Source: an uncultured Phycisphaerales bacterium | GTDB taxonomy: Bacteria; Planctomycetota; Phycisphaerae; Tepidisphaerales; Tepidisphaeraceae | Assembly (NCBI GenBank): GCA_963755915.1 | Contig: CAVWLP010000002.1 | Coordinates: forward strand, 3,360,001 to 3,424,000 | DNA: 64,000 bases | Direction: 5' to 3' | In this document: piece by piece, positions 8,068 through 20,471 of the stretch | Numbering within the stretch: the stretch's first letter is position 1 | How the letters are laid out: every line of letters begins with the position of its first letter | Position numbers and translations under genes: made by a program | Notes under the pieces: generated by a model | Database searches by the model: none | The model's input: only the letters and a program-made list of their open reading frames with translations | Told to the model about the DNA's origin: nothing

Positions 8068-9009
8068 ATGCGTATTCTCATTTCCGGCGCTGCGGGCTTT
8101 CTCGGATCGCATTTGAGCGATCTGCTCCTCTCCCAGGAGCATGACGTCGTCTGCATCGACAACCTCCTGACCGGCAAGCTGGAAAACATCGCCCACCTGC
8201 GCGATAACCGGCATTTCTCTTTCATCAAAGCCGACGTCACTGGTCCATTCAAAATCGAAGGCGCCCTGGACCGCATCTATCATATGGCCTCGCCGGCCAG
8301 TCCGATGGGGTACGTCAAGCACCAGGTCGCGACGCTCAAAGTGAACAGCCAGGGAACGTGGAATCTGCTCGAGCTGGCCGAGGCCAAAAGATGCCGGTTT
8401 CTGATGGCCAGCACGAGCGAGTGTTACGGCGACCCCGCCGTCAATCCGCAGACGGAAGCTTACTGGGGCAACGTCAATCCGATCGGCATGCGAAGCATGT
8501 ACGACGAGGCCAAGCGATTCAGCGAAGCCTGTACGATGGCCTACCATCGCGAACGCAAGGTCGATACGCGACTCATCCGCATCTTCAACACCTACGGGCC
8601 GCGGATGGATCCGTATGACGGGCGGGTGGTCATCAGCTTCATCCGCCAGGCGCTGCACAATGAGCCGCTGACGGTGTTTGGGGATGGGAAGCAGACGCGC
8701 AGCTTGTGTTATGTGAGCGATCTGATTCGCGGCATCAACCTGACCATGGAGAGCGATTTCCGGGAGCCGATCAACCTCGGGAATCCGGATGAGATCACGA
8801 TTCTGGATATCGCGAGAGTGGTTCTCAAGCTGATTCCGCAGAGCAAGAGCACGATCTCGTTTCACCCGATGCCGCCGGATGATCCGAAGGTGCGGTGCCC
8901 GGATATCACGCGGGCGAAGCAGGTTTTGGGGTGGACGCCGGTGGTTTCGCGGGAAGAGGGGCTGAAGAAGATGATTGAGTTTTATCGGGAAAGCCTTTCC
9001 AATCGTTAG
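8068..9009 (+). CDS. UDP-glucuronic acid decarboxylase (UXS-like extended SDR)
   Basis: GAAGFLGSHL, HMASPASP, ASTSECYGDP, YWGNVNPIG.RS.YDEAKR, RIFNTYGPRM. Confidence 0.93.
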   Translation: MRILISGAAGFLGSHLSDLLLSQEHDVVCIDNLLTGKLENIAHLRDNRHFSFIKADVTGPFKIEGALDRIYHMASPASPMGYVKHQVATLKVNSQGTWNLLELAEAKRCRFLMASTSECYGDPAVNPQTEAYWGNVNPIGMRSMYDEAKRFSEACTMAYHRERKVDTRLIRIFNTYGPRMDPYDGRVVISFIRQALHNEPLTVFGDGKQTRSLCYVSDLIRGINLTMESDFREPINLGNPDEITILDIARVVLKLIPQSKSTISFHPMPPDDPKVRCPDITRAKQVLGWTPVVSREEGLKKMIEFYRESLSNR

Positions 9010-9051: not shown

Positions 9052-10573
9052 CAATATTGTCCGGAACGCAGGCTCACAAATAACACGATCTTGCGCTTGC
9101 GCGAAGCAGCGTTTTGTGGTTCACTGCCGCCACGTGCACGCGGACCTTTGCCCAGCTTCTGGATTGCCCGCCAAGCCGGGACGAAAGCCGCGGCCGGCGG
9201 TGCGGGGGGAGGATTTGTTCGGCGGCAAGTACGTCGGTATTTTGCAGGATCATCTGGCCCGCCTGCGGGCGGCGCATCCCCACCCCAATCGCACGCTTTT
9301 TTATGACGATGTGACCCTTGCCTATCTGCTGGCGTTTTTCACGCCGGCGATTCGCAGCCTGCGGACGATGGAGGATTTCAGCCAGACCGAGCAGATGCAG
9401 GAGCAGCTTTCGGTCGATCGCCTGCCGCGTTCCACGCTTTCCGATGCCAACGCCCTGTTCGATCCGACGCTGCTGGAGCCGATCATCGAGGAGTTGCGGG
9501 CGCGGCTGCCGCACCTGCGTCACGGCGATCCGAAGCTGGCGGAGTTGACCGAGCGGGTACGGGTGGTGGATGGGTCGCTGTTCACCGTTGCCGCCGACGT
9601 GGCCTGGGCGCTGCATCAAAGTCGACCCAACGGAAAGCCCATGGACACGATTCGCCTGAATCTTCAATGGGCGGCGGGCGTGGGGGTTCCCGAGGGAGTG
9701 ACGATCAGCGGCGCGGGATGCTCCGAGGCGCAGGCGCTGATGCAGTCCCTGGAGCCGGGACAGATTTACGTCATGGACCGCGGCTACGTCTGTTTCGAGC
9801 TGCTGGAGCGGATCGTACATGCCTGCAGCGATTTTGTGCTCCGGCTCAAGTCAAACAACTATTTCATTCCCATCGAAAACAATGACTTGACCCCCAAGTC
9901 CCTGCCGCTGAGCGATGAAGACCGCGCTGCCGGCATTCTCAGCGACCGGATCGGATACCTGGGCTCAGAAGGGCCACGCTTTGCTCCTCCGGCGGGAAAA
10001 TGGCTTCGGGAAGTGACGATCTTCGACCCGGACAAACCCGACAGGCCCCTGCGGCTGCTGACCAATCTTCTTAACATTCCCGCCCATGTCATCGGTCTGC
10101 TCTACCGCTGGCGATGGAAGATCGAGCTGTTTTTCCGCTGGCTGAAAGTGCACGCCCACTTCCGCCATCTCACCAGCCACAGCAAAAACGGCGTCACCAC
10201 CGGGTTCTACATCGCGGTCATCGGGGTGCTGTTGATCTATCTGCACACGCAGCGTCCGGTGAGCAAATATGCCTACGCGATGCTGAGCCTGGTCGCCGCG
10301 GGAGGGGCCACGTTGCAAGAGATTATTCCCATCCTGCAGCGCGAGAACGGGAATGCGAGCTGCAGCGTCAGCGTGTGGCACGGAAGAAGGCTGAAAAAAT
10401 CGTCAAGTAAGTCACCGGGGGTTTTTGTTGTCCGGCCGCCGGTGAACGCCGCGGCATGCGCTGCAGGAGCAGCGCTGAACCTTCCACGCCGTTGCCCATC
10501 GAGGCAACGCAGCCTTTCGAGTGAAAACCCGAAAAATCCCAGCTTTAAGACGCGGAAGTCCCGGACAATATTG
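9052..10573 (+). mobile_element. Complete IS4-family insertion sequence, 1522 bp
   Basis: 13-bp perfect terminal inverted repeats CAATATTGTCCGG (9052-9064 and 10561-10573), flanked by 9-bp direct repeats CACTTTTGA (9043-9051 and 10574-10582). Confidence 0.95.
9164..10410 (+). CDS. IS4-family DDE transposase (frameshift at about 10345)
   Basis: VVDGS, YVMDRGY and YRWRWKIELFFRWLK (YREK signature). Probable true C-terminus ...RERECELQRQRVARKKAEKIVK*. Confidence 0.92.
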
Positions 10574-10822
10574 CACTTTTGAGGTTTTTGTTTGTGGATA
10601 CTAGCTTCCTTGCGGGGCGTATCTGTTGGTGGGGGAAGGGGTTGGGAGTAATTGGGGGGCGAGGGGCTTCCGATCACCGGAAAAAGTGTTCGATTTGTCT
10701 CGATTTTGCTTTTTCCGGGTTTTAATCGCGCCGCCGGCGCGGCCGCCTTAGCTGGGAATTTCTTACATCCGCCAGAAGCACTTTCTGTTCACCAAGCCGC
10801 TTGGGCTATACTTGCGATTCGG

Positions 10823-12139
10823 ATGTTCCCCGATTCGCCGGCCCCGCTGACCCTGGGCAAATCCATACAGATTTCGATTTTCGCCGCGCTCCTGCTCTTA
10901 TTCTTCTTCGGCTCAATAGCCCAAGCCTCCCCTCCCGCGGTCGTCGACGCCTCAACGCTCACCGGCAAAATCATGTGCGGCTACCAGGGCTGGTTCGGCG
11001 CTCCCGGCGATGGCTCAAAACTCAAACGCTGGATTCACTGGGGAACCAATGCCATGTCCCCCGGCACCGCAACGGTCGACCTCTGGCCGGATATGTCCGA
11101 ACTCGATCCCGATGAACAATTTTTCACCGGCTTCCATTTCCTAGGCGGCCGTGTGGCCACGGTCTTCAGCTCCTTTAGCTCCAAAACCGTGATGCGGCAT
11201 TTTCAGTGGATGCGCGAATACGGAATCGATGGCATCTTCCTTCAGCGCTTTGCCACGGGCCTGGGCAACGATGCCGTGATGGATCACTACGATCACGTCC
11301 TCGCCAGCGTCCGCGCCGGCGCGAATGCCAACGGCCGCGTCTTTGGCTTGATGTACGACCTCTCCGGCCTGCGCGACAGCGACGTCGGCCGGGTCATCGC
11401 GGATTGGAAACATCTCACCGACGACCTGGGCATGACGCGCGACCCCCGCTACATTCATCATCACGGCAAACCCGTTGTCGCACTCTGGGGAATCGGCTTC
11501 GCCGATCGCAAAGACCCGCTCCTCGCCGGCGGTGGCCTGCGCCTGGTCCATTTCCTGTCCACCGACCAAACCTATGGCAACAACTGCGTCATGCTCGGTG
11601 TTCCGACCAACTGGCGCATCGGCGGCGGTGATTCTGCCGACAGCGCCGGGCTCCTCGCGGTGATCAACGCCGCCGATATCATCAGCCCCTGGACGGTCGG
11701 CCGATACAGCAACCTGAACCAGATCAAATCGCACGCCGCCAATCGCTGGGCGCCGGACCAGCAGTGGTGCTCTGCCCACGGCAAGGAATATATGCCCGTG
11801 GTTTTCCCCGGCTTCAGTTGGCACAACCTCCGCCACGGCAAATCACCCCTGAACCAGATTCCCCGCCTCGGCGGCCGCTTCCTCTGGGCCCAGTACGCCG
11901 CCGCAAAACAATCCGGCGCGACCATGGTCTATCAGGCCATGTTCGACGAAGTCGATGAAGGCACCGCGATTTTCAAATGTGCCAACGATGTGCCGGACGG
12001 CGAGGGCAAAAGCGAGTTTCTTACTTATGAGGGTCTGCCAAGTGATTTTTATTTGAAGCTGGTTGGCGAAGCTTCCCAGCTGATTCGAGGAGAAATCACC
12101 GCGGATGACGAAAAGCTCATTGGGGCGTCAAGCAGATAG
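10823..12139 (+). CDS. Secreted glycoside hydrolase, GH71/GH99-like
   Basis: Signal peptide, GKIMCGYQGWF, HFQWMREYGIDGIFLQRF, MYDLSG, SPWTVGRY, PVVFPGFSW, AMFDEVDEGTAIFK. Confidence 0.85.
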   Translation: MFPDSPAPLTLGKSIQISIFAALLLLFFFGSIAQASPPAVVDASTLTGKIMCGYQGWFGAPGDGSKLKRWIHWGTNAMSPGTATVDLWPDMSELDPDEQFFTGFHFLGGRVATVFSSFSSKTVMRHFQWMREYGIDGIFLQRFATGLGNDAVMDHYDHVLASVRAGANANGRVFGLMYDLSGLRDSDVGRVIADWKHLTDDLGMTRDPRYIHHHGKPVVALWGIGFADRKDPLLAGGGLRLVHFLSTDQTYGNNCVMLGVPTNWRIGGGDSADSAGLLAVINAADIISPWTVGRYSNLNQIKSHAANRWAPDQQWCSAHGKEYMPVVFPGFSWHNLRHGKSPLNQIPRLGGRFLWAQYAAAKQSGATMVYQAMFDEVDEGTAIFKCANDVPDGEGKSEFLTYEGLPSDFYLKLVGEASQLIRGEITADDEKLIGASSR

Positions 12140-12225
12140 CGTTGGGGGCAAGAATGCCATTGCCTTCGACCGCCTTCGGCTCTGAGGCTCAGGCTCGATG
12201 AGAGCACGCCGAAGACCGGCGGCAC

Positions 12226-12282
12226 TTAAAACGCGAAGGCACCGTTTTCGTCGGAGCGCTCCCAGGCGTCGGCGACGGTGCC
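12226..12282 (-). repeat. Displaced copy 1 of the DUF1326 gene 3' end
   Basis: Translates GTVADAWERSDENGAFAF*, versus GTLADAWERSDENGAFYGAFAF* in the intact gene (16294-16362). Confidence 0.9.
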
Positions 12283-12311
12283 AGGGGAGTTTTCTGTGGG
12301 TGCAAGCACCC

Positions 12312-12480
12312 ACAGCTTTGATATGGGGCGGGATTGGATGGCGGGGATCAAGCGGCCAGGCTGATCGTTTTCGGTAGGGCCCCAGCATGGGCATGCTGGC
12401 GCTTTGCGTGGGATATTGGGCGGTGGAACAGTGGGGGGCTAAAACGCAAACGCGCCGTAGAAAGCACCGTTTTCGTCTGA
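12312..12480 (-). repeat. Displaced copy 2 of the DUF1326 3' end plus about 130 bp of downstream sequence
   Basis: 12439-12480 translates SDENGAFYGAFAF*. 12312-12438 aligns by eye with 16162-16293 (CAGCTTTGATA...GGCGGG.ATC...GATCGTTT...CCCAGC.TGG...GGGATATT...GTGGAACAG). Confidence 0.9.
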
Positions 12481-12645
12481 ACCCTTGTCGCGACGTTTTG
12501 GGTTTTGAAAGCTGATAGCTAATTCCTGCTCGAAAAATTTGATAAATTTGCTATACCTGTTATCTTACGGCTTCAACTACAGGACTGGACACCGCGCTGC
12601 AAATCTTGAAGTAGTTTGGGGAGAGAGCCTGAGCTTCGGACAGGG

Positions 12646-15265
12646 GTGGAAGGCGAGAGAAAATGCGCAGCCTCGACAAGGCGTTTTTGCCGCCAGAGAG
12701 TTCTTGCGCGGGCAGCGAGACTGGCGCTCATGGCGGCTGGCGCGGGGCTCTTCGGCGCGGATCGTGTTGGGTGGGCGGCCAGCGGGACCTGGAACGGCAG
12801 CAACGGATCGGGCGATAGCTATGAAATTGGGGATAACTGGGATTTCGGCGGGACGTTTTCCAACCCGGCGGTCGGGGACAGCCTCAGCATCAACTCCGGG
12901 GTTTCGACGTTCACGAACCCCAATGGGAGTGGCGATCTGATGCTTTCAAGTGCAAGCGGCGACGGGGAAAGCCTGACGGTCAATGGCGGAGAGCTTCAGA
13001 CGATTTTGACTTCGGGGGGAAGCGAGTCGGGGATCGCGCTGGATAATCAAGGGACGCTTGCCGTGACGGGCGGGACCGTGAATACCGCTGGCGAACTCGT
13101 CATCGGACTTGATGCCGGCAACAGCGCCGGAGCATCGTTCAGCGGGACGGCGGACGTGGCGGTGGATACCGCAGTCAATCCGGGGACCGATCCTACGATT
13201 TACGTGGGGTACCAGGGGATGGGAAATGTAACCGAATCGCAGCAGGCGAATGTCGCGGGCGAGAACCTGGTTCTTGGGGCGATGAGCGGATCGTCGGGAA
13301 CGTACAATTTGGAAGGAGGAAGCTTGTTGCTGCAGGGGACGGTTGCGGTAGGTGGAAGTGTGAGCTCCGCGGGGGGAACGGGGTCTTTGGACATATCGGG
13401 CGGAAGCCTGAGCTCTTCGGGGCTAATCGTTTGGGGTAGCGCAAACAGGGATAAGCATCTCAAGCGGATCGGTGAGCACGGGCACGGTGAGCGTGAACGG
13501 AGGGGGTTATAGCCAATCGGGCGGGAGTTTGATCGCGGGGAGCGCTAACTTTTCCGATGCGGGTTCATTTTCGTTTACGGGAGGGACGATCGCGATCAGC
13601 GGTGGGACGCTGACGCCTGACCAATCCGGGTTTACGGTGAGCGATCCATCGGGGAGCTCGGAATATTTGGGTTTCCAGATCAGCGGCGTGGCGATGTCGG
13701 CGATCGGGCCGACGCTTACGCTGCAAAGCGGCGGAAAGTGCACGATTTCGAACAATATTTGCATCGGAAACAGTGGCGGCCCGGGGAGCGTGAGCATTAC
13801 GGGAACAGGTTCGTCCCTAACCAGCAGCAGCGGGGAGATATTTGTGGGAATTGGGGAAGATGACGAGGTTGCGGGAAACGGAACGCTGACATTAAGCGCC
13901 GGGGGGCAGGTCAGCGGCTCAGTCGCGCTGATCGGCTACGACTATGGAACGGGCCTGGGGACGGTGGATGGGGCTGGCTCTGAACTACGCGGGACATCCG
14001 GGCTGGCAGTGGGAGATGATTACGGAAGCGGAACGATCCATCTGACCAATGGCGGGGAAGCGAGTGCCGTTTTCTATGCGGTGATTGGCTATAACAACGG
14101 GAATGGCGCGGCCACCGCGGATGGGAATGGTTCGGAGTTTGTAACGGGGGGATTGCTGTATGACGGTTATTTCGGAGGAATAGGCTCGTTGACGGTGACC
14201 AACGGCGCAGGCGTACAGAGCGCCGGCGCGATCGTCGGAGGAGCCGGGGGAACGGGTTCGCTCACTCTCAGCGGCGCCGGATCGAACTGGACATCGAGCG
14301 CTTCGGTTTTCGTCGGGGGCGACCCTGATGGAAATCTTGGGGAAGGCGCTGTCACGGTGAACGCGGGCGCTTCCGTCGCGATTGCGAGGACGCTGAAGAT
14401 TTGGAACTCGGTTGGCACGTCGGTGAACCTGGCGGGCGGGACGATAAAAACTGCGTCGCTGGATACGAGCGGGAATGGAAATCTGCTGGATTGGACTTCC
14501 GGGACTTTGCAGATAACCGGGTCCGGGGGTCTTACCATTGGCCCCACCGGAACGCTCGAAAATACGACCCTGTCGGTGGGACAGACCCTGGACGTGACGA
14601 GCACACTGACAATTCAATCGGGGGGATTACTCGAGATGCCCGGCGGACAAATGACCGCGGGGGGCCTCGTGATCAATTCGGGCGGGACGCTGGACGTTGC
14701 CAACAGCCATTTCATCATAAATTATGGCTCCGGGTCGGATCCTGTGAAAACCATCGCGGGATATATTGCGAGCGGATTTAATAATGGGAACTGGAACGGA
14801 ACGGGAATCATTTCGTCTACCGCCCAGAATCCAACGAATGGTTTGCGATACGGGGTGGGATGGGCGGATGGAGCCGATCGGGTGGTTGCGGGACTCACTT
14901 CAGGTGAGATCGAGGTAAAGTACACGCTGCTTGGGGATGCGAATCTGGATGGAGTGGTGAATGGCTCAGACTTCAGCATCCTGGCGGCGAATTTTGGGAA
15001 GGGTGTGACGAATTGGGACCAGGGGAATTTTCTATTCACTTCGTCGGTGAATGGATCGGATTTCAGCGCGCTGGCAGCGAATTTCGGGCAGGGAGATTCG
15101 GGAGCGGATGTGGGGGTTTCACAAGCGGATATCGCTGCGTTGGATGCGTTTGCAGCGGCAAATGGGCTGGTGGCCCAGGTGCCGGAGCCTGGGTGCGCGG
15201 CACTGGCGGGGATCGCGCTGGTTTTTGCGGCGCGGCGACGGGGACAGCCAAGCCCTCGGCCTTAG
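12646..15265 (+). CDS. Large Gly/Ser/Thr-rich surface protein with beta-strand repeats, dockerin-like domain and PEP-CTERM tail (frameshift at about 13440-13470)
   Basis: Repeated L.VG..G.G.L.VT.GG units, GDANLDGVVNGSDFSILAANFG / VNGSDFSALAANFG duplication, and C-terminal VPEP + hydrophobic stretch + RRR. Confidence 0.88.
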
Positions 15266-15271
15266 AAACAA

Positions 15272-16051
15272 TCAGTTCAAACCCTGCTGGGCGAGGCGAA
15301 ATTTCTTTGCGAGTCCCGCACAGAAGAGCACCGACATCAAAACGCCGCCGCCCCAGAAGGACGCCGGAAGGGCGGCGACAGGGGTGCTTCCAAAAGTCGG
15401 ACTTCCGGGAACATAGACGCTGCTGATGTCGAGTGCGCCGCTGCTATCGTAAGAAGCAACCGGCGATGTCGTAAATCCGGTCGTTGGCACTGCGGTAATC
15501 GTGAGGGTTCCGATTAGCGTGGTGCCCGAGATTGTGCTTCCGCTGTAAGAGTAGCTGAGATTCGTGAAGCCGGCAGTGCCGTAAGTTTTAGCGTTCTGGT
15601 CGAGAAGATTTCCCATGGCGGGTGGAGTATCGCCGATGGACGAACTAAACATAAAAGGTCCGGTGGACGAGGAGACGGCGTTGTAGTAAGTGCTGGTGGT
15701 TTGGGAGAAGGATCCGTAGGAGGACAAGCCTGGTATTGAGAGGGTTGCGCCGGAGAAGCCGGCGATATTATAGATGACGAAGCCGTTGCCGTTTGTAACG
15801 AGAGCGTTTGTGTCAATGCTGACGGTGTAGTTGTAAACGCCCGAAATTGGATTGAACGCGGCGGATGTAACACTAATGGTGTCGGCGTCGACGGCGTGAC
15901 AGCGTAAATGGAAGCAAGCGAGAGCGAAAACCGATAGTATGCCGCGCACGAGCCGCCCGGCTTTATCCCACTTGCGGGCAGGACAGATTTTTACGGCTCT
16001 TTTCATTTTCTCCATCCCTACGGCAAGCCAGGGAAGCGCCTCGAAATGCAT
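15272..16051 (-). CDS. Secreted Ser/Thr-rich protein with VPLPA-CTERM-like exosortase signal
   Basis: N-terminal hydrophobic signal. C-terminal PVAALPASFWGGGVLMSVLFCAGLAKKFR. Start position uncertain. Confidence 0.75.
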   Translation of the reverse strand: MHFEALPWLAVGMEKMKRAVKICPARKWDKAGRLVRGILSVFALACFHLRCHAVDADTISVTSAAFNPISGVYNYTVSIDTNALVTNGNGFVIYNIAGFSGATLSIPGLSSYGSFSQTTSTYYNAVSSSTGPFMFSSSIGDTPPAMGNLLDQNAKTYGTAGFTNLSYSYSGSTISGTTLIGTLTITAVPTTGFTTSPVASYDSSGALDISSVYVPGSPTFGSTPVAALPASFWGGGVLMSVLFCAGLAKKFRLAQQGLN

Positions 16052-16293
16052 CCAAGAGCTCGACTTTTAGCATGGAATATCAAAATATAGCGGTCGTGTC
16101 AATCAAATTAACAATTGATTTATCCCGAGTTAAGCCTCTCCGGTTCATCGGGCGCCGGCCTCCAGCTTTGATAATAAGGTCGATATTTAGGGCGGGTATC
16201 GAGGGGCGAGGCGGATCGTTTGTTCGGGAGAGCCCAGCGTGGCCGTGCTAGGGCTTTACGGGGGGATATTTTGGGAGTGGAACAGAGGAGTCG

Positions 16294-16944
16294 CTAGAAC
16301 GCAAACGCGCCGTAGAAGGCGCCGTTTTCGTCGGAGCGCTCCCATGCGTCGGCGAGTGTGCCGGCGGAATATTGGGCATCGACCGTGTATCCGACCATGC
16401 CATTGGTTAGCTTTTGGATGGGGGTGTACCAGACGAGGTTCGGCTGTTTGCAGCAGGCCATGTCGGGCATCGACTGAACGTCCATGCTGGCGAAGCCTGG
16501 CGAGGAGACGGTGTACTCGTCGTCGATGTGCTGGAATTGGATCGGCCCGCGGCGGATGGCGGTGACGGTGCCGAGGGCGGAGCGATTGCGGGAAATAATT
16601 GCGTTGATCGCGGCGTCGGATTGGGCTCGGGTGGCGGAGCTGTCGACCAGGATTTCGCATTTGCGCGGTGCGGATTGGTCTTTCAGGTTCGCGCTGCAGG
16701 TTACGACGGCCATGACGCGGACGCCGGTGATGTCTGTGCCGTGCCATTGGCCGGAGGTGAAGTTCCAGGCCATGACGGCGTCGTCGCCGGTGGTGACCCA
16801 TTCGCCGTTATAGTGGCAGGGGCCGGCGAAGACACTGGCGGTGCGGGCTTCGACATAATTGCCCGCCGGGCGGGAGGCGACGGTTGGGTTTTTTGAAGAG
16901 GGGATCAGGGTGGAGATCAGGGCGATGGCGAATGCGATGTTCAT
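16294..16944 (-). CDS. DUF1326-like secreted protein
   Basis: Signal peptide and GNYVEARTASVFAGPCHYNGE...AVMAW motif recalled for this family. GAGG RBS. Confidence 0.75.
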   Translation of the reverse strand: MNIAFAIALISTLIPSSKNPTVASRPAGNYVEARTASVFAGPCHYNGEWVTTGDDAVMAWNFTSGQWHGTDITGVRVMAVVTCSANLKDQSAPRKCEILVDSSATRAQSDAAINAIISRNRSALGTVTAIRRGPIQFQHIDDEYTVSSPGFASMDVQSMPDMACCKQPNLVWYTPIQKLTNGMVGYTVDAQYSAGTLADAWERSDENGAFYGAFAF

Positions 16945-16957
16945 GTGGTCCTCGCAA

Positions 16958-17290
16958 TCATAATTTGCTTTTGTCCAGAGCCGAGCGATAGCAGGATCGG
17001 CCTGGGACGCAGTCTTCGGGGGCGACGATGTTGCCGTCGGGGCCGACGACCTGCTGTGTATGATAGCACCAGCAGTGGCCGCTGGGGTCTAAATAATCTT
17101 CGGGTTTAGTGGCGATCTGGTCGAGGAGGAAGAATTTTTTGGAGCGTAAATCTCCGCAGAATGGGGTGTTGGGCGCGGCGCGAGAAGGTAGAGCAGTGGA
17201 AGGGGCGGACACGGGCCGGGGACGGCCCGGCTCAGGCTCGAGGTCGGAGCGAGGTTGGGTGGGGGAGGGCGCGTGGGAGTCGTTATGCAT
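16958..17290 (-). CDS. Small Cys/His-rich hypothetical protein
   Basis: FCGDLRSKK...HCWCYHTQQVVGPDG...CVPGRSCY. Overlaps the stop of the FAD subunit gene. Confidence 0.7.
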   Translation of the reverse strand: MHNDSHAPSPTQPRSDLEPEPGRPRPVSAPSTALPSRAAPNTPFCGDLRSKKFFLLDQIATKPEDYLDPSGHCWCYHTQQVVGPDGNIVAPEDCVPGRSCYRSALDKSKL

Positions 17291-18291: not shown

Positions 18292-20471
18292 TCAAGCTTT
18301 CTGGGTTAGGCCCATGATGATTTTGTCGGGGGTGATGGGGAGTTGGCGGACGCGGACGCCGCAGGCGTTGAAGACGGCGTTGGCGATGGCGGCGGCGGGG
18401 GGGACGGAGGGGGGTTCGCCTACGCCGACCACCGCCTGGCGCGGGTCGTCGTCATCGATCAGGGGGAGCATTTCTTCGGGCATTTCGAGGCAGCCGGCCA
18501 TTTTGTAGTCCATGAAACTGGAGTTGACCATGACGCCGAGGGTTTCGTCCATGACGCGGCCTTCGAGGAGGGCCATGCCGATTCCCTGGACCATACCGCC
18601 GTTGATCTGGCTTTCGACGGCGAGACGATTGAGGGGGAGGCCACAATCCTGGACGTCGAGAATGCGGATGACGCGGATGTGGCCGGTTTCGGTGTCGACT
18701 TCGACTTCGGCGAAGCAGGCGCCGTGAGCGCCGCCGGAGGAGAGGCCGGGCTTCCATTGGCCGAGGACGTCTACGCCTGCGGAGGGGAGGGCGAGGCAGG
18801 CTTGTTCCCAGGAGAGGGAATTTTTGCCGGCGCTGACGGTGCGGTTGGTGAAGACGAGGTCTTCGGGCTGGGCGCCGAGGATGGGGGCGACGCGCTTGGC
18901 GATTTCGGCCTTGGCGTTCATGGCGGCGTCTTTGACCGCAGGTGACAGAGAGGGGGCGGTGGAGGAGCCGCCGGAGAAGTTGGCTTCGGTGAGTCGGGTG
19001 TCGCCGATTTGTTCTTTGACGTCGGCCATTTCCAGGCCGAGTTCTTCGGCGACGATGGCGACCATGTAGGTGCGGGTTCCGGTGCCGAGGTCCTGGGTGC
19101 CGCAGGAGACATTGACGGAGCCGTCGCGCTGGACGGTGAGGTTGACGATGCACTGGGGGCGACCTGCGCCGCCCCAGATTCCGCAGGCGCAGCCGAAGCC
19201 GCGCTTGAGAACGCCGGGGGTTGCGCCGGGGGTCATGCTGCGGCGGACCCAGCCGATTTCGCGTGCGCCGCGCTGGAGCTGGCGGATGTGGTCATCATCG
19301 GCGCGGAGATTTTTGATGCGGAATTCGACGGGATCGGTGTTGAGCTTATAGGCCAGCTCGTCCATGAGGGATTCCATGGCGAAACAGGCGGGGGGATGAC
19401 CGGGGCGTGCAGGGGGCGGGAGGCGTCTTCGTTGGTGTAGATGGAGCCGGCGTTTCGGAAGATGTGATCGGCGTGATAGATGTAGGGCTGGCCTGCGAGG
19501 CTGCCGTTGGCGAGGCCACCGAGGCCGTATTGCTCGATGCTGATGGCGTTGAGGGTTCCGTCGCGGTTGGCGCCGGCGCGGAATCTTTGCAGGCTGCCCG
19601 GGCCATTGCCGGCCATTAAGAATTCGTCGCGGCGGGGGAGGGCCATTTTTACAGGGGCGTTGGCTTGTTGGGAGAGGAAGCAGGCGAGCTGGCCTTCGAT
19701 GCCGATGCCCCCCTTGGAGCCGAATCCGCCGCCCATGTAGTGGACGATTCCGACGACTTTGCTTTCGTCGAGCTTGAGGATTCGGGCGGCGTCGCCGGGG
19801 ATGGAGAAGGTGCCCTGGGTGGAGCAGTAGACGGTTGCGCTGTCTCCGCCGCGATAATCGACGGCGACGACGTGGGTTTCGAGGCAGGTGTGATGGAGGC
19901 GCGGGGTGCGGTATTCGGCTTCGACGAGTACGTCGGAGGATTTCAGGGCGTCTTCGACGGTTGCGGCGTTTCCGGATGAGTTGGTGTGGCGGATGTTGTT
20001 TTTCACGCGGCGGTCGTTGGGATAGACCGAGGGGGCGCCGGGCTTGATGGCCTGATCGGGAGTTACGGCGTGCGGAAGGACGTCGTATTCGACGTCGATC
20101 GCGTAGATCGCGTCTTCGGCGATTTCGGTGGTTACCGCGGCGACGGCGGCGATGGGGTCGCCTTCAAATCGCAAAACGCCGCCGACTTTGGCGCGGGCGT
20201 AGACGGCTTTTACGCCGGGGATTTTTTGGGCGGCGGAGAGATCTAGTTTGGTGATGCGGGCGCTAGCGTGAGGGGAGGTGAGGATGCGGCCGTAGAGCAT
20301 TCCCGGGAGTTTGACGTCGTAGGAATAGATGGCGGTGCCGGTTGTTTTATAGGGGAAATCGACGCGGGGGAGGCGCGTGTTGATGAGGCGATGTTGGTCG
20401 TTGGGGCCCCAGGAAAGTTTCTCGGGGGCCGAGGGATTTGCGGGCGCGGCTTGCATGTTGGCTTCAGCCAT
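18292..20471 (-). CDS. Xanthine dehydrogenase family molybdopterin-binding subunit (YagR/PaoC-like), frameshifted at about 19390
   Basis: KTTGTAIYSYD, HTCLETH, YMGGGFGSK, GTQDLGTGT, GGSSTA, FAEVEVDTETG, SQINGGMVQGIGMAL, GVGEP. Confidence 0.92.

Follow-up and report, generated by a model that had tools for sequence, protein, structure and literature searches.

Introduction

Islands that depend on an integrase are found in the 3′ ends of protein-coding genes, for example in icd (prophage e14) and fda (ICESt1), and integrase-less remnants called CIMEs accrete in tandem. The accretion of CIMEs and ICEs at the 3′ end of fda in streptococci is such a tandem accretion of integrase-less islands. A more general concept is that of replacement hotspots (flexible genomic islets) flanked by conserved core genes, and in most of these no gene end is duplicated.

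For Rhs loci and T6SS effector-immunity loci, displacement of the 3′ (C-terminal) end through homology-facilitated illegitimate recombination was proposed (Kirchberger et al., 2017, PMC5361080, citing Jackson et al., 2009 on rhs). As set out there, and probably likewise at the locus described below, a conserved upstream part of the gene is the anchor, incoming DNA supplies a new 3′ end with downstream genes, old ends pile up downstream, no integrase takes part, and finished arrays spread between strains by homologous recombination. The displaced ends there are different toxin tips and the immunity genes are retained, so that selection explains the arrays (PMC5361080). Insertion with long target duplication is another integrase-free process, with more than 30 bp duplicated (Furuta, Abe and Kobayashi, 2010, PMC2853133, citing Nobusato et al., 2000). 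According to that study, and likewise here, more than 30 bp of unique target is directly duplicated, often over a gene 3′ end, and no mobility genes are present; the insertion is found through an empty site in a relative, as at pdxA below. The inserts there are restriction-modification systems, with repeats that are near-identical in most cases (e.g., 44/46).

Here, we analyze a stretch of 64 kb (the window) in which the end of a DUF1326 gene occurs three times, once in the live gene (copy A) and twice as a stranded remnant (B and C). These displaced gene-end scars are real and of an already known kind, and their best reading goes under the names 3′-end displacement, homology-facilitated illegitimate recombination or insertion with long target duplication in the literature. 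Unlike the toxin tips, the three ends encode the same peptide, and they belong to an uncharacterized gene beside a molybdo-enzyme operon with unrelated cargo (surface proteins or an amylase); unlike the restriction-modification cases, the repeats are alleles of 77-89% identity in three copies and the cargo is no such system. As in integrase islands and CIMEs, incoming DNA restores the gene end and the displaced ends are direct repeats bracketing cargo, but integrase, fixed core, common B/C border and element-borne copy of the site are all missing. As in flexible islets, the same conserved flanks enclose unrelated content in each relative, but unlike in most of these, scars record part of the history.

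Three ends of one gene

The features of the locus are as follows.

16294-16944, minus strand: live DUF1326 gene, 216 aa (Pfam PF07040, 5.1e-10, 40.2 bits against a cut-off of 25)
16294-16362, minus strand: copy A, the functional DUF1326 3′ end, GTLADAWERSDENGAFYGAFAF and a TAG stop
16150-16293, minus strand: unit A, the repeat after the stop, with the M1 palindrome (nhmmer 16159-16293, E 5.8e-28)
15272-16051, minus strand: cargo gene 2, coding for 259 aa, hydrophobic over an N-terminal stretch and ending in a TM-plus-basic tail
12616-15265, plus strand: cargo gene 1, a large repeat-rich surface protein (TIGR04393, 3.5e-14; PF07589, 21.3 bits)
12508-16047, unstranded: translocated segment, both cargo genes as a block, 85% over 3559 nt to G001:C1:105318-108871
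12439-12480, minus strand: remnant B, the last 13 codons and TAG of a DUF1326 allele, SDENGAFYGAFAF
12284-12438, minus strand: unit B, the full downstream repeat (M1 palindrome ~12380-12399, M2 hairpin 12294-12315)
12226-12282, minus strand: remnant C, which keeps the final ~22 codons from a different DUF1326 allele, GTVADAWERSDENGAFAF, and TAA
12165-12228, unstranded: REP-like palindromic element, from the stop codon of C onward, of a dispersed family with ~30 genome matches
10652-12139, plus strand: convergent GH99-like glycoside hydrolase gene (PF16317, 8.7e-12)
9116-10582, plus strand: IS transposase (DDE_Tnp_1), one of ~20 near-identical copies
8068-9009, plus strand: gene for an NAD-dependent epimerase/dehydratase, at which a genus-wide variable interval has its conserved far end

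DUF1326 closes the conserved gene block coxL-coxM-small ORF-DUF1326, and orthologues with conserved synteny are present in 11 of the 12 other genomes of the genus. An earlier note, made from the letters alone, had reported three same-orientation copies of its end and ~130 nt of downstream DNA common to A and B; all three copies lie on the minus strand where it had placed them, and alignments confirm the common DNA, which is partly a low-copy dispersed double-hairpin repeat. In a blastn search of the 6.6-Mb assembly, the A region matches B with its downstream DNA over 175 nt (77%, E 1.8e-25) and C over 54 nt (89%, E 5.4e-13), no further match being better than E 7.6e-5. The insert is thus bracketed by direct repeats of unique target sequence, each longer than 30 bp (A/B 175 nt, A/C 54 nt). 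No DUF1326 paralogue was found elsewhere in the assembly by tblastn, and the gene end is absent from 2.9 million viral contigs and from the GTDB species set, so that no attP-bearing element is visible in these collections.

The two remnants are built differently. DNA homology of B to A begins at ~12485 (12439-12485; nhmmer E 6.3e-8), and its peptide is unchanged at the amino-acid level; that of C extends to ~12293 (12226-12293; nhmmer E 5.7e-8) and includes a 12-nt in-frame deletion. B starts at ~S204 and C at ~P191/G192, that is, at different codons, and downstream B continues into the hairpin unit and C into the REP element. The identical block common to A, B and C is 11 nt, and no identical core of more than 20 nt was found between A and B. 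Unit A ends exactly where the M2 hairpin would start (after ATCAAAGCTG), and its orthology to the nearest relative (G001) ends at 16192; in unit B this hairpin is a perfect one of 10 bp. Between remnant C and unit B, the joint lies at a CTCC(G/C)CC-like similarity, a microhomology that is short and was noticed post hoc.

Compared with A, the codons of B show four synonymous and no non-synonymous differences, and those of C four synonymous and one non-synonymous (L>V) in addition to TAG>TAA. In B and C together, nine of the ten differences from A are silent, in agreement with the earlier description of the copies as differing mostly synonymously. Under neutral decay after in situ duplication, the probability of at most one non-synonymous change in ten is 0.0007-0.003; if two changes common to B and C are counted once, eight events are left and P is ~0.009. 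The silent excess indicates that B and C diverged in different lineages, each closing a working gene, and it supports the interpretation, also given in the earlier note, of the remnants as former functional ends of diverged alleles.

Reliability of the assembly

The repeats could have been an artefact of a long-read metagenome bin, and the assembly does have its faults: there are errors of the frameshift type, two indels in cargo gene 1 (at 12670 and 13438) that split it and are corrected by short-read contigs (1 nt fewer at 12670 and GC added after 13438), a split coxL gene, and a completeness of 81% in three contigs. However, the copies differ from one another by 11-23%, short-read contigs from one study (four runs, depth 3-6x) cover C and B into the cargo (12214-12918) and also A (16075-17020) with 0-1 differences, and a counterpart of B is present in the independent assembly of G001. 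An artefact, a possibility raised in the earlier note, is refuted for practical purposes, and we assign it only a vanishingly small probability. In the contigs of the same four runs, neither strain-level variation at the locus nor a circular form, deletion or empty joint was seen at this low depth.

A resident segment as cargo

The interval of 3.7 kb between A and B contains two genes in opposite orientations. Cargo gene 1 encodes T5SS/PEP-CTERM-associated repeats, a dockerin-like repeat and a PEP-CTERM tail; the isolated C-terminus scores 21.3 bits with PF07589 against a cut-off of 20.7, and for the C-terminal module of ~200 aa, over 120 paralogues are present in the genome, which has three exosortase genes. 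Cargo gene 2 has no family match, its C-terminus has no match to the PEP-CTERM model (PF07589), and it has one paralogue (C2:2376097-2376820). Thus, of the two exosortase targets formerly proposed, the large protein qualifies and the tail of the 259-aa protein does not match this model. No transposase or integrase domain was detected in either gene.

The counterpart of this block in G001 sits at a different locus (C1:105318-108871), again adjoining an M2-type hairpin. With a pair 85% identical at another locus of the relative, a foreign origin of the cargo is not supported; the pair is a resident piece of the chromosome that has been shuffled among loci or strains, and is neither a delivered nor a self-mobile cassette.

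The sister genome and the genus

The clade consists of two genomes only, this one (G000) and G001. In G001 the slot carries a secreted GH13 amylase, not the two surface-protein genes, which speaks against the earlier idea of a dedicated cassette-accretion site delivering variable PEP-CTERM proteins. The GH99-like gene, 87% identical in G001, is the right border of the slot in both genomes; the IS transposase, which is missing at this site in G001, lies outside the A/B/C repeat structure. An orthologous remnant, B′, begins within ~3 nt of the start of B; for C, G001 has no counterpart. While B is intact, B′ has decayed, with 28 of 43 nt identical and 6 of 13 residues changed. Unit B is orthologous to the B′ unit (80.6% over 191 nt), and the units adjoining B and B′ are 87-92% alike. 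Taken together, the four units (A, A′, B and B′) form a mosaic in which A lies closest to B′, and A′ lies closest to B in the hairpin part, with informative sites at 4 to 1 for mosaic over orthologous pairing. Identity of DUF1326 to its G001 orthologue falls only in the last ~64 nt (75%), where both genomes are rearranged.

Among ten genomes, the spacing between DUF1326 and the epimerase gene is 426, 715, 738, 2054, 3019, 4451, 4720, 6316, 7288 and 9694 nt, with unrelated content. This interval is a genus-wide variable hotspot, and the variation in relatives anticipated by the earlier note, including other cargo in G001, is therefore real. Extra copies of the DUF1326 end were found at none of nine other loci of the genus and none of seven metagenome loci; only this lineage has them, and the notion of remnants as a genus-wide feature is not supported. 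No close relative has an empty site at DUF1326, the single one, G001, being occupied; short remnant-free intervals are found only in distant members of the genus, whose DUF1326 is 52-60% identical.

The same scar at other genes

A scan of the 9482 open frames of at least 200 codons in this genome for displaced ends revealed the following.

pdxA: displaced in-frame end of 73 nt, cargo a TonB receptor
ugd: displaced in-frame end of 111 nt
transglutaminase gene: displaced in-frame end of 130 nt, cargo an RND/Cus-like efflux operon
Lhr-type helicase gene: displaced in-frame end of 64 nt
ispD: displaced in-frame end of 82 nt

No tyrosine or serine integrase was found in the inserts behind these five genes. 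At pdxA, G001 retains the empty site, and the remnant and flank in G000 are orthologous to the native end of G001. The live end in G000 is foreign, with 75-82% identity over the last ~180 nt as against 92-97% upstream; the drop extends over ~180 nt and the duplication over 73 nt, so the imported tract is longer than the duplication. Judged from these alignments, the pattern is the one that a homologous crossover combined with an illegitimate joint would leave. At the transglutaminase gene, the live end resembles G001 more closely (95%) than the remnant does (88.6%), which implies more than one route to such scars. Because the same scar lies behind at least five unrelated housekeeping genes, it has no special tie to DUF1326 or surface proteins, and the idea of a site unique to DUF1326 is not supported.

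Probable mechanism of displacement

Scars B and C were probably made by homology-anchored recombination with an illegitimate second joint. The hotspot lies directly behind DUF1326, between two conserved gene blocks, and B and C would record at least two events. Each time, DNA of a related lineage would have brought its own copy of the DUF1326 end, one side being joined by homologous recombination and the other by an illegitimate (short- or no-homology) joint, with one gene end kept in frame with DUF1326 and the second copy stranded downstream. Later, the content of the slot may have been swapped by ordinary homologous recombination between the flanks, which would explain why the sister genomes have B and B′ in common but different genes. 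We infer the joint mechanism at DUF1326 and the number and order of events. The unlike 5′ borders and downstream DNA of B and C need at least two separate events, the number of insertions already put forward in the earlier note, and differing start codons and downstream DNA are expected for illegitimate joints, not for one att site. That note had left the choice between recombination and catalysis in trans; the former fits best, and a trans-acting integrase is disfavored by the lack of a fixed core. Its analogy with prophage attB sites holds for the outcome, an end restored and the old end displaced, but does not give the mechanism indicated.

It is unlikely that exchangeable cassettes instead move in and out through RecA-dependent single crossovers (Campbell type) in the ~190-nt repeat, with the last 13 DUF1326 codons and the double-hairpin unit as a portable homology arm and with a border that the first event set and all later cassettes inherited. 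This would account for the same B/B′ border beside different cargo in two genomes, for the mosaic units, as expected from crossovers at varying points, and for the cargo at another locus of G001, again next to an M2-type hairpin; the direct repeats (175-208 nt) are long enough for RecA. However, the coding part of B, being cassette-derived, should then be old and decayed and is instead intact, its changes all being silent; C lacks a unit and differs in its border, the repeats are only 77-81% identical, no circle or deletion joint appeared in the four low-depth runs, and the imported tract at pdxA, longer than the duplicated part, is not given by a simple Campbell insertion. Regarding the preferred illegitimate joint, we note as a point against it that B and B′ have nearly the same 5′ border with different cargo, B being intact and B′ decayed, so that a single old illegitimate event needs an extra assumption, either gene conversion of B or later whole-slot exchange by homologous recombination. 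The unit mosaic fits repeated crossovers within the repeat equally well as it fits this model.

That a tyrosine or serine recombinase acts in trans to integrate DNA site-specifically at the 3′ end of DUF1326, with tandem accretion of integrase-less islands, seems quite improbable, even though such systems give the same outcome with old ends stacked downstream, the genome has 24 phage-integrase family matches elsewhere, B and B′ have a common border, and the perfect 10-bp hairpin stands at the unit end where A is truncated. None of the 58 ORFs in the 64-kb window has a recombinase domain, one IS transposase aside, as the earlier note had said of integrases, and the PF00589 match closest to the window, a fragment, lies ~47 kb outside its start. 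The borders of B and C differ, A and B have no identical core above 20 nt (11 nt in all three), the site has no other copy in the genome, viral contigs or other genomes, the cargo is a resident segment and no island with mobility genes, and five other genes with the same scar in different sequences would need many different site-specific systems. A site-specific element or CIME is disfavored on the same grounds, being without recombinase or identical core and with different borders at B and C, as is an integron cassette array, for which the window has no integrase, the cargo genes are opposed and the repeats are gene ends, not attC. Local tandem duplication of the gene end, with decay and later insertions between the copies and no foreign alleles, could explain why the copies are close together in the same orientation, with B adjacent to C, but it is very improbable in view of the nine silent differences in ten, hardly compatible with neutral decay, the unlike downstream DNA of B and C, and the real decay that B′ of G001 shows. 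On the preferred reading of homologous anchoring with an illegitimate joint, the stranded DUF1326 ends would mark repeated insertion or swapping of neighboring genes by ordinary recombination.

Three Ends of One Gene

The last 23 codons of the DUF1326 gene (A, the live end) recur twice downstream in the same orientation, as displaced remnants B and C. Read in the direction of the gene, DUF1326 with A is followed by unit A (repeat DNA downstream of A), a 259-aa gene, a surface-protein gene, about 25 nt, B, unit B and then C, which directly abuts unit B. After C follow a REP-like element, the stop of a convergent GH99-like gene, an IS and an epimerase gene.

Features of the DUF1326 locus (window positions)
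16294-16944, minus strand: DUF1326 gene (Pfam PF07040, 5.1e-10)
16294-16362, minus strand: copy A, last 23 codons of DUF1326
16150-16293, minus strand: unit A, downstream repeat ending exactly where the hairpin would begin
15272-16051, strand opposite to the surface-protein gene: gene for the 259-aa protein, no family match
12616-15265, strand opposite to the 259-aa gene: large surface-protein gene, with T5SS/PEP-CTERM-associated repeats (TIGR04393, 3.5e-14) and a PEP-CTERM tail (PF07589, 21.3 bits, isolated tail scored)
12439-12480, minus strand: remnant B, encoding SDENGAFYGAFAF and a stop; DNA homology from about 12485
12284-12438, minus strand: unit B, palindrome M1 (CCAGCATG..CATGCTGG) and hairpin M2
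12294-12315: hairpin M2 of unit B, perfect 10-bp stem
12226-12282, minus strand: remnant C, encoding GTVADAWERSDENGAFAF and a stop; homology to about 12293
12165-12228: REP-like palindromic element, beginning at the stop codon of C
10652-12139, convergent: GH99-like gene
9116-10582: IS with DDE_Tnp_1 transposase
8068-9009: epimerase gene

B differs from A by four silent changes, and C by four silent changes, one replacement (L>V), a change of TAG to TAA and a 12-nt in-frame gap. Searched against all 6.6 Mb of the assembly, the A region is matched, besides itself, by B and the DNA behind it over 175 nt (77%, E 1.8e-25) and by C over 54 nt (89%, E 5.4e-13), and nothing else scores better than E 7.6e-5; the DUF1326 protein has no paralogue elsewhere in the same assembly. 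If the remnants had decayed neutrally after local duplication, replacements would be expected to make up about 57-64% of the differences. There is one in ten (P = 0.0007-0.003, or about 0.009 when the two changes common to B and C are counted once). This deficit bears out the earlier note, which had described a triplicated gene end with these coordinates, this orientation and mostly silent differences, and had taken the copies for alleles, each once the end of a working gene. The hairpin unit was also considered as the supplier of the C-terminal 13 codons and was rejected: other copies of the unit lack those codons, and all orthologues have the C-terminus without the unit.

The three-copy structure is not an assembly artefact, an eventuality that the earlier note had raised. 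Divergence among the copies is 11-23%; Logan contigs of short reads from four runs, all of one study and possibly of the source sample (depth 3-6x), agree with the window over 12214-12918, from C through B into the cargo (the two genes between A and B), and over 16075-17020, across A; and an orthologous remnant is also present in a second assembly, that of the nearest relative (G001). These contigs reveal indel errors in the window, a surplus of 1 nt at 12670 and a missing GC after 13438, and correction of the latter would make ORFs 12616-13512 and 13472-15265 one surface-protein gene. In a coxL-like gene, an assembly indel of the same kind is the probable cause of a split into two ORFs that overlap (19233-20471 and 18292-19377). 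No excision joint, empty site, other cargo or circle was found in the contigs of the four runs, which at a depth of only 3-6x is no evidence either way on excision.

Cargo, Repeats and Machinery

The 259-aa protein has a tail that fails the PEP-CTERM model. There are three exosortase genes in the genome, and more than 120 paralogues carry the C-terminal module of the surface protein (13472-15265). This shared module of about 200 aa consists of a dockerin-like repeat and a PEP-CTERM tail, with 50-77% identity across a very large paralogous family.

The DNA downstream of A and B is partly a low-copy dispersed repeat; the coding remnants are unique, unlike the adjoining units. Near-full M1-M2 copies lie at C2:3505172-3505293 and C2:3506243-3506391 and a split copy at C2:4211962-4212086, besides about 15 partial matches in the genome. 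The double-hairpin unit is intergenic, its M1 stems vary compensatorily (CCCCAGCATG..CATGCTGGGG vs CCCCCCGA..TCGGGGGG), and it is found at several borders of rearrangement between the genome and G001. Copies of it separate the tandem small genes of C2:3505000-3508300, the proteins of which have a C-terminal CxxCGYDxRATPxRCPECG zinc-ribbon motif. One copy of the unit has a REP-like element nested in its M2 loop. An abundant REP-like family, matched at about 30 places in the genome (e.g., C3:818992-819051), accounts for the 60 nt that follow C; it has the core CTCTTCGAGCCTGAGCCTCAGAGCCGAAGG and two subfamilies and often stands directly behind stop codons.

Integrase, resolvase and Y1 transposase domains were found in 0 of the 58 non-overlapping window ORFs of at least 90 aa, in agreement with the earlier statement that no integrase is visible, and the transposase of the IS is the sole mobility gene in the window. 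This IS, which lies outside the repeats and separates the GH99 gene from the epimerase gene, has about 20 near-identical copies in the genome, many of them frameshifted near residue 409; it is absent at the G001 site, where a prepilin-type (N_methyl) protein gene stands instead. The genome has 24 phage-integrase-family and 2 Y1_Tnp matches, all outside the window, and neither the integrase nor the RAYT count has a link to the DUF1326 locus. The two Y1_Tnp (RAYT-like) genes are at C3:1125127 and C3:576500. As for an att site in an RNA gene, Rfam gave no match at E ≤ 1 in 8-18 kb and a tRNA scan found no tRNA gene in the window. An exact-pattern search for the A/B-type gene end gave no match in other GTDB species genomes or in IMG/VR contigs.

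The Sister Genome

DUF1326 of G001 is 93% identical to that of the window. Homology between the two runs through DUF1326 to 16192 and resumes at B', the G001 counterpart of B, to continue into the GH99 gene. B' is 80.6% identical to window 12286-12472 in a 191-nt alignment, and its start lies no more than about 3 nt from that of B. Between A' (the G001 counterpart of A) and B' lies a gene for a secreted GH13 alpha-amylase (PF00128, 6.3e-34), which has no orthologue in the window's genome (best match 25%); C and the REP element have no counterpart in G001. Over the remnant itself, 28 of 43 nt are identical, B being intact and B' decayed, and the adjoining units are 87-92% alike. The units are mosaic: A is nearest B', and A' is nearest B in the hairpin part. 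At its DUF1326 end (13100-13220 of the extracted locus, L017), G001 has an extra C and CAG replacing the stop, so that no stop closes the frame there (…SDENGRLLPRLRV…), owing either to an error in the assembly or to damage to the C-terminus.

The window's cargo block (12508-16047) is matched in G001 at another locus, C1:105318-108871 (85% over 3559 nt), whose right flank maps to C2:765159-766564 of the window's genome; a hairpin of the M2 type is found there too, some 75 nt away from the block. The two cargo genes are therefore resident DNA with a different position in each genome, not a foreign cassette. The interpretation in the earlier note stands in part: its observation is confirmed and the allele ends are upheld, but a cassette site that delivers variable PEP-CTERM proteins is not.

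A Hotspot throughout the Genus

DUF1326 is present in 15 of the 61 sampled genomes, the window's included, and in 11 of the 12 other members of its genus (a tally that takes in the unpublished genome G014, on which no other result depends). A conserved synteny, coxL-coxM-small ORF-DUF1326, a variable interval and epimerase-lipoprotein-GT2, surrounds it. In ten genomes the DUF1326-epimerase interval measures 426, 715, 738, 2054, 3019, 4451, 4720, 6316, 7288 (window) and 9694 nt, and in four metagenome contigs 1933-4451 nt; the epimerase is elsewhere in G003 and not found within 9.9 kb in G009. Its content is mostly unrelated from genome to genome. A two-gene module is common to the intervals of four genomes, and in two of them extra inserts precede it, placed straight after the DUF1326 stop.

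With nhmmer, a profile built on the 3′-terminal 90 nt of DUF1326 found extra copies in the window only (E 5.7e-8 and 6.3e-8), with none in nine other genus loci or seven metagenome loci; B' scores only E 1.8, being too decayed. The hotspot is therefore genus-wide, and the gene-end scars are specific to the lineage of the window's genome and G001. The seven loci from the metagenome search for nearer relatives all have at most 61% protein identity. A degenerate DENGAFYGAF pattern occurs in four genus members, in a single copy each. A displaced "downstream 250 nt" in G004 and G006 turned out to be merely the 3′ end of a convergent gene.

Displaced Ends behind Other Genes

The last 75 nt of 9482 open frames of at least 200 codons were scanned for same-strand copies up to 15 kb downstream. 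Such a copy, with at most six matches genome-wide, was found for 49 frames. Coding homology is below 160 nt in 19 rows (two of them DUF1326), which are thus not tandem paralogues. Among the 12 of these that were inspected, several were spurious frames or tandem duplications (e.g., C3:1286626), and five were in-frame displaced ends of genes recognisable by Pfam.

Displaced ends of other genes in the same genome
C2:2225000-2231000 (L035): pdxA, 73-nt end 3.2 kb downstream; cargo a TonB-dependent receptor
C2:1148500-1152500 (L036): UDP-glucose dehydrogenase gene (ugd), 111-nt end 456 nt downstream
C2:1977500-1987500 (L037): transglutaminase-like gene, 130-nt end 7.1 kb downstream; cargo a Cus-like RND efflux operon
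C2:2385500-2389000 (L038): Lhr-type helicase gene, 64-nt end plus 343 nt of downstream DNA
C2:340000-345500 (L039): ispD, 82-nt end 3.1 kb downstream; IS3 transposase inside

For pdxA an empty site is kept in G001. The remnant, with its TAA stop and flank, aligns with the native gene end of G001, and the live end (TAG) has diverged: identity to G001, 92-97% further upstream, is only 75-82% in the final 180 nt or so, a length exceeding the 73-nt duplication. The live end is a foreign allele over this stretch. The pattern is that of a homologous crossover within the gene and, 73 nt short of the recipient stop codon, an illegitimate joint. The transglutaminase gene, whose live end is 95% and remnant 88.6% identical to G001, suggests a mirror-image route, in which the anchor would lie on the far side and the donor gene end would be a passenger. 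The efflux operon there (OEP, a frameshift-split AcrB, and HlyD with a heavy-metal-binding domain) is 87% identical to C5:811218-817739 of G001, another locus, and is thus a relocated resident block, like the DUF1326 cargo. The ugd and ispD sites are rearranged in G001 also, with no clean empty site. At the G001 ispD site, a second copy of the ispD end lies about 4 kb downstream.

How the Ends Were Displaced

The simplest account is homology-anchored recombination with an illegitimate second joint at a hotspot. DNA would enter the slot through an anchor in homologous sequence, the other joint being illegitimate, and slot content would later be swapped between relatives by ordinary homologous exchange. 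B and C, with their different borders and downstream DNA, require no fewer than two events. At the B/C joint, the gene and the terminal part of unit B both have a short CTCC(G/C)CC-like stretch, which is compatible with a microhomology joint, as weak post hoc evidence.

Three observations sit somewhat awkwardly with this account: B and B' share a border yet flank different cargo, B is intact and B' decayed although the adjoining units are so alike, and units A, A', B and B' are mosaic. All three would be covered if B had undergone gene conversion from the live end or if the whole slot had been exchanged homologously. Repeated crossovers within the repeat would do so equally, and for this reason a Campbell-type "portable arm" is kept as the main rival, improbable as we hold it to be. 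Here a module of about 190 nt, comprising the last 13 DUF1326 codons and the double-hairpin unit, would serve as an integrase-free attachment arm; hairpin-flanked segments would exit and re-enter by RecA-mediated crossovers or hairpin breaks, and blocks such as surface proteins, amylase and efflux operon would move from locus to locus and from strain to strain among related soil Planctomycetota. In its favour are the border common to B and B', the mosaicism of the units and the M2-type hairpin that accompanies this cargo at the other G001 locus.

Known Systems and Meaning

The same outcome results when an integrase inserts islands into gene 3′ ends, and likewise from CIME accretion, but an integrase, a fixed core, a border common to B and C and an element-borne copy of the site were all looked for and not found. 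Kirchberger et al. (2017; PMC5361080) propose, for serial displacement in T6SS effector-immunity arrays, exactly the mechanism favoured for this locus; they mention the same idea for Rhs loci, where orphaned 3′ regions stand in strings, and note that arrays, once complete, spread via homologous recombination. "Insertion with long target duplication" (>30 bp), integrase-free and sometimes overlapping a gene 3′ end, is described for several phyla by Furuta et al. (2010; PMC2853133). The locus is a well-documented, richer-than-usual example of a known recombination scar, with no new mechanism; its richness lies in three copies, a sister with different cargo, relocated resident cargo, genome-wide recurrence and one clean empty site.

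The locus shows how, in a large soil Planctomycetota (Tepidisphaeraceae-like) genome, accessory genes are re-sorted beside conserved genes without dedicated mobile-element machinery. If the portable arm were true, the B/B' border, the mosaic units and the cargo-side hairpin would be footprints of a working exchange system. For annotation, short in-frame copies of gene ends should not be taken for att sites by default. Such events leave datable scars, the silent-site divergence of displaced ends revealing an origin in another lineage, and in population genomics these scars could serve to count and order recombination events at hotspots.
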